From the NCBI RefSeq assembly GCF_003334385.1, contig NZ_QOWN01000086.1: DNA of 4,411 nt; one strand, 5' to 3'. Positions 758 to 774 of the stretch are shown piece after piece (position 1 is the first letter of the stretch; each line of letters begins with the position of its first letter). This DNA comes from Escherichia coli (GTDB taxonomy: Bacteria > Pseudomonadota > Gammaproteobacteria > Enterobacterales > Enterobacteriaceae). Below the pieces are notes generated by a model. That model saw only the letters and a list, made by a program, of their open reading frames with translations. It ran no database searches and had not been told where the DNA came from. The translations under genes were made by a program, and so were the position numbers.

Positions 758-774
758 TGCGGCTCTCAGCCGCA
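758..774. other. Perfect 7-bp stem / 3-nt loop hairpin (TGCGGCT-CTC-AGCCGCA) 30-45 bp downstream of the IS91-family tnpA stop; candidate ori-end structural element
   Basis: Directly visible inverted repeat: 758-764 tgcggct, 765-767 ctc, 768-774 agccgca. No flanking U/T run on either strand, so not a typical intrinsic terminator. IS91-family ends are known to carry hairpin-forming repeats. Confidence 0.4.

Follow-up and report, generated by a model that had tools for sequence, protein, structure and literature searches.

IS91 and ISEc37 are IS91-family members, a group of rolling-circle Y2 HUH transposons in which the hairpin of the terIS end is functionally comparable to the 3' hairpin of Helitrons. 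In a quite different setting, 3' stem-loops without U-tracts stabilise bacterial messenger RNAs (mRNAs), as exemplified by the repetitive extragenic palindromic (REP) stabilisers. Here we consider a small hairpin at positions 758-774 of a 4,411-nucleotide stretch of Escherichia coli DNA (contig NZ_QOWN01000086.1 of assembly GCF_003334385.1; the window hereafter), which lies in a decayed insertion sequence (IS) of the IS91 family, and which we find to enclose the authentic stop codon of the transposase gene, tnpA. Two published observations are important for what follows: ISEc37 is 95% identical to IS91 (PMC3332091), and the last 82 bp of the IS91 right end with the adjoining CTTG, together with 89 bp of the left end, make up a mini-IS that transposes when TnpA is provided in trans (PMC13181058, citing Mendiola 1994).

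The identity of the element is clear. Window positions 575-1941 share 94-96% identity with copies annotated 'ISEc37 family' on E. coli and Shigella plasmids, and positions 573-2380 are ~90% identical to full-length IS91 copies. The TnpA of an intact relative scores 290.5 bits on NF033538 transpos_IS91 (cutoff 125), and the protein encoded by the open reading frame (ORF) of the window is 94% identical to ISEc37 TnpA over residues 54-375. An earlier note on this stretch had recognised both an IS91-family tnpA and a perfect 7-bp stem with a 3-nt loop, and both stand: the identities and the model match bear out the first, whilst the sequence itself and an inverted-repeat search (arms of 7 nt, 100% complementary, spacer of 3 nt) confirm the second. 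Its placing of the hairpin 30-45 bp past the tnpA stop, on the other hand, holds only for this mutated copy. Compared with the intact 395-aa ISEc37 gene, tnpA shows three lesions here: codon 15 (1899-1897) carries TGG>TAG, 11 nt are missing from codons 52-56 (near 1787), and the C-run at 830-832 is one nucleotide short, which shifts the frame at codon 374 and creates the stop at 804-806. The intact copies read ...CGG TGG TGC GGC TGA (ISEc37) or ...CAG GTG TGC GGC TGA (IS91) at their 3' ends and encode proteins of 395 aa with the C-terminus RWCG (ISEc37-type, Shigella copies) or QQVCG (IS91), and the true stop (768-766) therefore falls within the hairpin. The last two codons and the U of UGA make up the 5' arm, and with the 3' arm the non-coding sequence starts. 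With three inactivating lesions the element is inactive in the window, and whatever the hairpin once did, here it is a relic; it is an unremarkable part of an already known insertion sequence, to be annotated neither as a terminator nor as part of the IS end, but as the end of a dead tnpA reading frame.

On the + strand the hairpin reads TGCGGCT-CTC-AGCCGCA and is palindromic except for its loop, so that it is able to form on either strand. The 17-mer folds as DNA at -7.8 kcal/mol on either strand (z of -5.5 against 17-mer shuffles) and as sense RNA at -10.3 kcal/mol, and its stem is kept in both the minimum free energy (MFE) and the centroid structures of 71-131-nt contexts, regions which are not unusually structured as a whole (z of -0.1 to -1.6). 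By itself the hairpin is not statistically remarkable. The window has 5 perfect stems that reach 7 bp or more and have loops of 3-8 nt, where dinucleotide shuffles have 1.8 +/- 1.3; GC-rich stems of this kind number 1 against 0.12 expected, and the chance of at least one such GC-rich stem is 0.12 for the window and 0.15 within the IS alone; it is conservation that lifts the hairpin above chance. The four other perfect 7-bp inverted repeats, with loops of 4-7 nt, are found at 1539-1556, 2471-2490, 3438-3458 and 3796-3815. A search with the Rfam covariance models gave only Tymo_tRNA-like, at 19.2 bits (gathering score 40) and E = 0.97, which is a chance match. A larger outer stem, GGATGC/GCATCC (741-746 with 780-785), was considered and dropped, as it is conserved neither in IS91 proper nor in other lineages.

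How the hairpin has fared in its close relatives was assessed over 15 distinct 3' regions of the IS91 clade, 75-98% identical to the window. Its 17 nt are identical in 12 of the 15; the variants have one mismatch (L013), one mismatch and one wobble (L095), and two mismatches and one wobble (L005), the latter two copies being relics. Pairwise diversity is 0.053 in the hairpin versus 0.198 in the ten codons just upstream, with values of 0.132 in the next 23 nt, 0.20-0.36 in the remaining 3' non-coding sequence and 0.125 in the oriIS block. Ranked among 286 segments of 17 nt, the hairpin is the 7th least variable, and of the twelve segments that vary least it alone lies outside 823-859, a stretch that includes the C-terminal CxxC codons; its loop and 3' arm rank 4th of 180 non-coding 10-mers for low variability. 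The hairpin is the least variable non-zinc-finger block of the 3' region. A protein alignment shows no family-wide conservation of the C-terminal TnpA residues, which makes nucleotides a more plausible target than amino acids for the constraint on TGC GGC. This pattern argues for selection on the sequence and, given that covariation is lacking, is not proof of selection on the pairing.

The earlier note held that its reading would fail if related elements had no hairpin at the equivalent position, and the outcome is split: IS91, ISEc37 and most close relatives have it in identical form, but the 3' arm is missing at that position from distant members (IS801, IS1294 and the Arsenophonus, Vibrio and Piscirickettsia clades), which contain only weak or differently placed stems. 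A family scan with TnpA alignment, taking one genome per species, yielded 80 loci, and C-terminal stops could be located in 77 copies; the TnpA C-termini fall in the same alignment column, which makes the position of the stop homologous. In an anchored alignment of 24 representatives, the IS91 clade has ~9-12 extra nt between the stop and a family-wide motif (described below), and these extra nucleotides are the 3' arm. The hairpin is thus a lineage-specific insertion, an inverted copy of the last bases of the gene, in a 3' region that measures 149-228 nt from tnpA stop to oriIS across the family. Other stems occur around the stop elsewhere: CCCU-GAC-AGGG followed by AGGTGCG-TC-CGCACCT in IS801, GCCU-GACAC-AGGC in IS1294, CGTAGG-ATA-CCTACG in L038, stems that enclose the stop in L042 and L070, and CCUGAAA/UUUCAGG in an enterobacterial clade. 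Across 30 family representatives, which are related to one another, local folding energy is lowest at the stop codon (-5.9 versus about -3.7 kcal/mol, 27-nt windows), and none of the other offsets, 61 in all with the stop, has a mean folding z as extreme as the -0.85 found there. A recurrent tendency to structure at the stop across the family is possible, not established.

What could such a structure do? The reading that we favour, with a probability of roughly 0.4, is that a stem-loop in the sense transcript at the end of the tnpA frame serves as an mRNA 3' protector or as a termination-coupled element. A stable stem-loop would form at the very end of the tnpA reading frame and would straddle the authentic stop, an arrangement that we set out as UGC GGC UGA / GAG / AGCCGCA (the GA of the stop being counted again in the loop), the non-coding 3' arm being a short insertion specific to the IS91 clade that repeats, in inverted orientation, the last two codons and the U of the stop. 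The structure could protect the 3' end of the message against 3'-to-5' exonucleases, and a terminating ribosome would have to melt it; the outcome would be a tuned level of transposase mRNA or protein, and not transcription termination or a role in the origin of transposition. For this to hold, the pairing and not merely the sequence would have to be what is conserved, the hairpin would have to act in RNA, and its role would have to lie there. In its favour we count the low diversity of the hairpin within the clade, the folding-energy minimum at the stop across the family and the established precedent of the REP stabilisers; an RNA-stability element, which the earlier note had offered as its other suggestion, is likewise a possibility.

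Several observations weigh against a transcript-level stem-loop. A 7-bp GC-rich hairpin arises by chance with P ~0.12 in a window such as this one, and compensated pairs are absent in all three variant lineages (L013, L095 and L005), so that the 15 sequences offer no covariation. The ORF of L013 is intact despite its uncompensated mismatch, and its change makes a C.A on the sense strand but a G.T on the bottom strand, the one that is transposed, a mild point in favour of DNA. In the wider family, the structure signal is weak and comes from representatives that are not independent, stem geometry and MFE folds differ between clades, and the best candidate stem of a sister clade has no covariation above controls. 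Finally, the literature searched makes no mention of the hairpin at 758-774.

Alternatively, the hairpin may simply be a neutral, lineage-specific quasi-palindrome, a functionless product of a template switch that duplicated the last codons in inverted orientation into the 3' untranslated region of an IS91 ancestor, and which has persisted as IS copies are young and spread by copying. Only the IS91 clade has the insertion that forms the 3' arm, mismatches are borne without compensatory changes by 3 of 15 lineages, of which one retains an intact ORF, the chance expectation is not negligible, and mini-IS91 transposes without the hairpin (PMC13181058). We rate this somewhat less probable than the transcript-level stem-loop. 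Against it, the hairpin is the least variable non-coding 3' stretch, below oriIS and most of the coding sequence in diversity whilst lying beside a hypervariable tail, and TGC GGC has undergone no synonymous changes in 14 of the 15 sequences. Action as single-stranded DNA is a further alternative, and one that we consider unlikely: on the displaced bottom strand (the + strand of the window), ~180 nt after the oriIS nick, the hairpin would be a pause signal, a TnpA-binding site or a pseudo-terIS, leading to premature termination at a nearby tetranucleotide and hence to miniature right ends. The functional intermediate is indeed a bottom-strand circle (PMC13181058), on which L013, the sole variant with an intact ORF, retains G.T pairing, and the terIS hairpin is similar in size and composition (6-bp GC-rich stem, 3-4-nt loop; the '17-nt GC-rich' sequence of PMC3189936). 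Moreover, a 222-bp right-end fragment extends from oriIS across the hairpin, which it keeps intact, and stops precisely behind a CTTG that lies 23 nt further on, a point past which the full-length relative L096 runs on. This fragment looks like a miniature produced by premature rolling-circle termination, in parallel with the 229-nt miniatures of IS801 that have been attributed to that process (PMC3189936). However, the three plasmids that bear it share one context and so represent a single event, the only one found when we looked for recurrent miniatures ending near the hairpin; an earlier CTTG within the fragment was left unused, no palindrome was found by the authors at the IS801 miniature ends (PMC3189936), and the mini-IS that lacks the hairpin still transposes (PMC13181058). 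The terIS hairpin itself also differs. It stands 3 nt, not 23 nt, from the cleavage tetranucleotide, with a fixed geometry and conserved flanks (TAG-stem-loop-stem-AGC) that are absent at the stop hairpin, and its stems differ by clade yet remain complementary (GCAGCC/GGCTGC, CCCGCC/GGCGGG, CGATGC/GCATCG, CGCCCC/GGGGCG and GCAGAC/GTCTGC), as judged from the left ends of the window (2358-2380), L003, L008, L026, L030, L038, L040, L043, L056, L070 and L077; compensatory changes of this kind are not seen in the stop hairpin.

Two further possibilities are in our view very improbable. One is that the hairpin is an integral structural part of oriIS, close to the suggestion of the earlier note that it could be a structural element of the IS end. 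It lies 180-196 bp inside the IS end at 579 and outside the last 82 bp that suffice with CTTG (PMC13181058), ~100 bp of poorly conserved sequence (diversity 0.2-0.36) separate it from the oriIS block, and it is absent from family members with the same oriIS consensus; its distance from the end, beyond poorly conserved sequence, places it outside the minimal origin. The other, just as faint a prospect, is that it works as an intrinsic (Rho-independent) terminator of tnpA or as a recoding signal, for UGA readthrough or selenocysteine. A GC-rich stem at the end of a gene would suit a terminator, but no T or U run follows the stem on either strand (sense ...AGCCGCA GAGGGGAAG, + strand ...AGCCGCA CCACCGCA) and it is not among the terminators listed by a scan of 500-2450, in line with what the earlier note had already judged more likely. 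As to recoding, several IS91/ISEc37 copies have no stop in the frame past the UGA for 58-63 codons or more; yet the UGA sits in the loop, versus ~11 nt upstream of the stem in a bacterial selenocysteine insertion sequence, and the in-frame extension closes after 19-29 codons in L013, L097 and L095, with indels that are not multiples of three. Neither a stem ~11 nt after the UGA nor a conserved in-frame extension, as expected of bacterial recoding signals, is found here. UGA readthrough and a downstream small ORF were accordingly rejected, the frames being unconserved, as are the start codons after the Shine-Dalgarno-like AGG.

The most useful by-product of the analysis is the family-wide motif that follows the stop. 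This motif, ~AGGrnARrTnyGyCY, has an invariant GG and an information content of 14.7 bits, and occurs 0-13 nt after the tnpA stop in clades with only ~30-40% TnpA identity; in 59 of 73 loci a position weight matrix (PWM) match falls no more than 30 nt to either side of the stop (sites include L007 1983-2001, L008 1965-1985, L042 2700-2740 and L067 1355-1372). Its conservation looks to be at the nucleotide level: CGN never stands in for AGG, and there is no conserved ORF. No description of it was found in the papers searched, and a PWM scan gave no consistent site for a second copy near terIS or elsewhere. That the motif is a direct repeat of a site inside oriIS was rejected: ISEc37 alone shows a significant similarity (13/18, p = 0.04), and 22 other elements do not. 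It is tempting to ask whether the stop hairpin of the IS91 clade and the family-wide motif together constitute an undescribed cis-acting site of IS91-family elements, a proposal we regard as a long shot; such a site could take the form of a second recognition site for TnpA or a host factor, or of a pause or pseudo-termination signal on the displaced strand. Were this true, the site would affect the point at which rolling-circle transposition ends and the way in which miniature right-end elements are formed. Should either the hairpin or the motif prove functional, it would be a new regulatory or termination-control element for IS91-family and ISCR-type rolling-circle transposons, whose imprecise termination mobilises neighbouring virulence and resistance genes.

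Two other observations were made near the motif. In the Yersinia ruckeri element L042 (2701-2740), three tandem 12-nt units, GAAGATCTGCCT, which correspond to the post-stop motif, follow the tnpA stop, and the related L052 has one. The IS801 variant L088 (2272-2330) departs from IS801 right after the post-stop hairpin AGGTGCG-TC-CGCACCT; its sequence past the divergence, GGGGTTGTAAGCCGGAA..., is found upstream of IS801 in L007 (511-600), and the site may be an insertion or recombination point.

Table 1. Coordinates of the element, of the features discussed and of the related right-end fragment (window positions unless a locus is named; "sense" refers to tnpA).
Feature	Position	Strand	Basis or remark
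Whole IS91/ISEc37-like insertion sequence, ~1.8 kb	579..2380	-	Homology limits to full IS91 copies (573/579..2380) and ISEc37-type copies (575..1941)
CTTG target tetranucleotide adjoining oriIS	575..578	+	CAAG, GAAG or GAAC at the same place in relatives; IS91 target (PMC13181058)
oriIS end	579	-	Sense ...TTTTAATTCCTATCGAT, then CAAG (579/578)
Last 82 bp of the right end, reported sufficient for oriIS	579..660	-	Sequence, alignment, PMC13181058; hairpin outside
Post-stop block GAGGGGAAGTTGCATCCAT (sense)	739..757	-	Window copy of the family motif; alignment and PWM scan
Hairpin	758..774	-	Sense: 5' arm TGCGGCT 774-768, loop GAG 767-765, 3' arm AGCCGCA 764-758
Ancestral tnpA stop TGA	766..768	-	T is the last base of the 5' arm, GA the first two loop bases
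tnpA pseudogene, IS91-family Y2 HUH transposase	766..1940	-	~95% nucleotide identity to ISEc37-type copies
Premature stop of this copy only	804..806	-	ORF 804..1787; out of frame relative to intact copies
C3 run (sense G-run), one base short of intact copies	830..832	-	Alignments to intact copies
orf121-like upstream ORF, 115 aa	1945..2292	-	Position matches IS91 orf121 (PMC13181058) and the L003 coding sequence 436-801
terIS	2358..2380	-	Sense TAGGCAGCCTGACGACTGC; decayed GC-rich hairpin, followed on the + strand by CTA and TTCG
222-bp right-end fragment	L092 1501-1722, L093 1501-1723, L094 1501-1721		E. coli plasmids pRM9513, NZ_CP027453 and pJNE120393-1

The remaining parts of the element agree with its assignment. 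The conserved oriIS terminus, ...TTCCTAnnnAT next to a CTTG/GTTC-type target, which is the consensus in 20+ family members, is present in the window, and a subterminal GC-rich hairpin next to the terminal tetranucleotide, as is characteristic of terIS in this family, lies at 2358-2380. On the + strand this hairpin reads GCAGTC-GTCA-GGCTGC in the window versus GCAGCC-GCCA-GGCTGC in intact IS91, a difference that leaves one stem mismatch, and the terminal tetranucleotide is TTCG in the window and CTCG in IS91. An NCBIfam search with the orf121-like ORF (1945-2292) gave no match. On plasmid pE94-2 (L003 2170-2200), CGAG and then another terIS come directly after the IS91 oriIS end (…CCTATCGAT CGAG TAGGCAGCC…), a tandem or junction layout that resembles an oriIS-terIS circle junction.

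The IS91 copy lies among IS fragments, in what could be called a graveyard. An IS630-family fragment occupies 1-300 (-), with a near-identical DNA match over 1-282 only, and a short ORF fragment at 473-577, without a match in NCBIfam, is interrupted by the IS91 insertion at CTTG; we take it to resemble the N-terminus of an IS256-type transposase. Further along are C-terminal fragments of the IS3 family (2348-2584) and the IS66 family (4150-4332, -), and ISEc45 (IS110-like) sequence from ~4110 to 4411. An ORF of 277 aa for an AraC-family regulator (3234-4067, +) lies in AT-rich DNA, and in NCBIfam it comes closest to HilD and HilC, at a level well below the cutoff. The region from 2.6 to 4.1 kb has no near-identical match in the plasmid collection, and none of the E. 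coli complete genomes covers at least 80% of the window.

How, then, does this locus compare with the systems described to date? With IS91 and ISEc37 it shares 90-96% nucleotide identity over 579-2380, an identical hairpin sequence, the terIS hairpin, an orf121-like ORF, tnpA, a 3' region of ~190 bp and an oriIS ending in ...TTCCTATCGAT next to CTTG; it differs in that the window copy is dead, with a nonsense codon and two frameshifting deletions in tnpA and mutations in both the terIS hairpin and its tetranucleotide. The oriIS region of ISCR1 likewise has ~150-230 bp of non-coding sequence between the transposase stop and the oriIS end, but in the 232 bp downstream of rcr1 outward promoters have been mapped experimentally (PMC6218425), whereas a site scan found no promoter-like site at or near the IS91 hairpin. 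Intrinsic terminators have in common with it a GC-rich stem at the end of a gene and are set apart by their U-tract. The terIS hairpin is similar in its short GC-rich stem (6-7 bp in the two hairpins), its 3-4-nt loop and the TGCGGCT that occurs in both IS91 regions; yet terIS is terminal, family-wide and marked by complementary changes between clades, whereas the stop hairpin is internal, restricted to the IS91 clade and without covariation. The REP-type mRNA stabilisers resemble the IS91 hairpin in being stable GC-rich stem-loops that lack a U-run and lie where a coding region ends, at its 3' side; the IS91 hairpin differs in that it is not a repeated extragenic element and includes the very stop codon.
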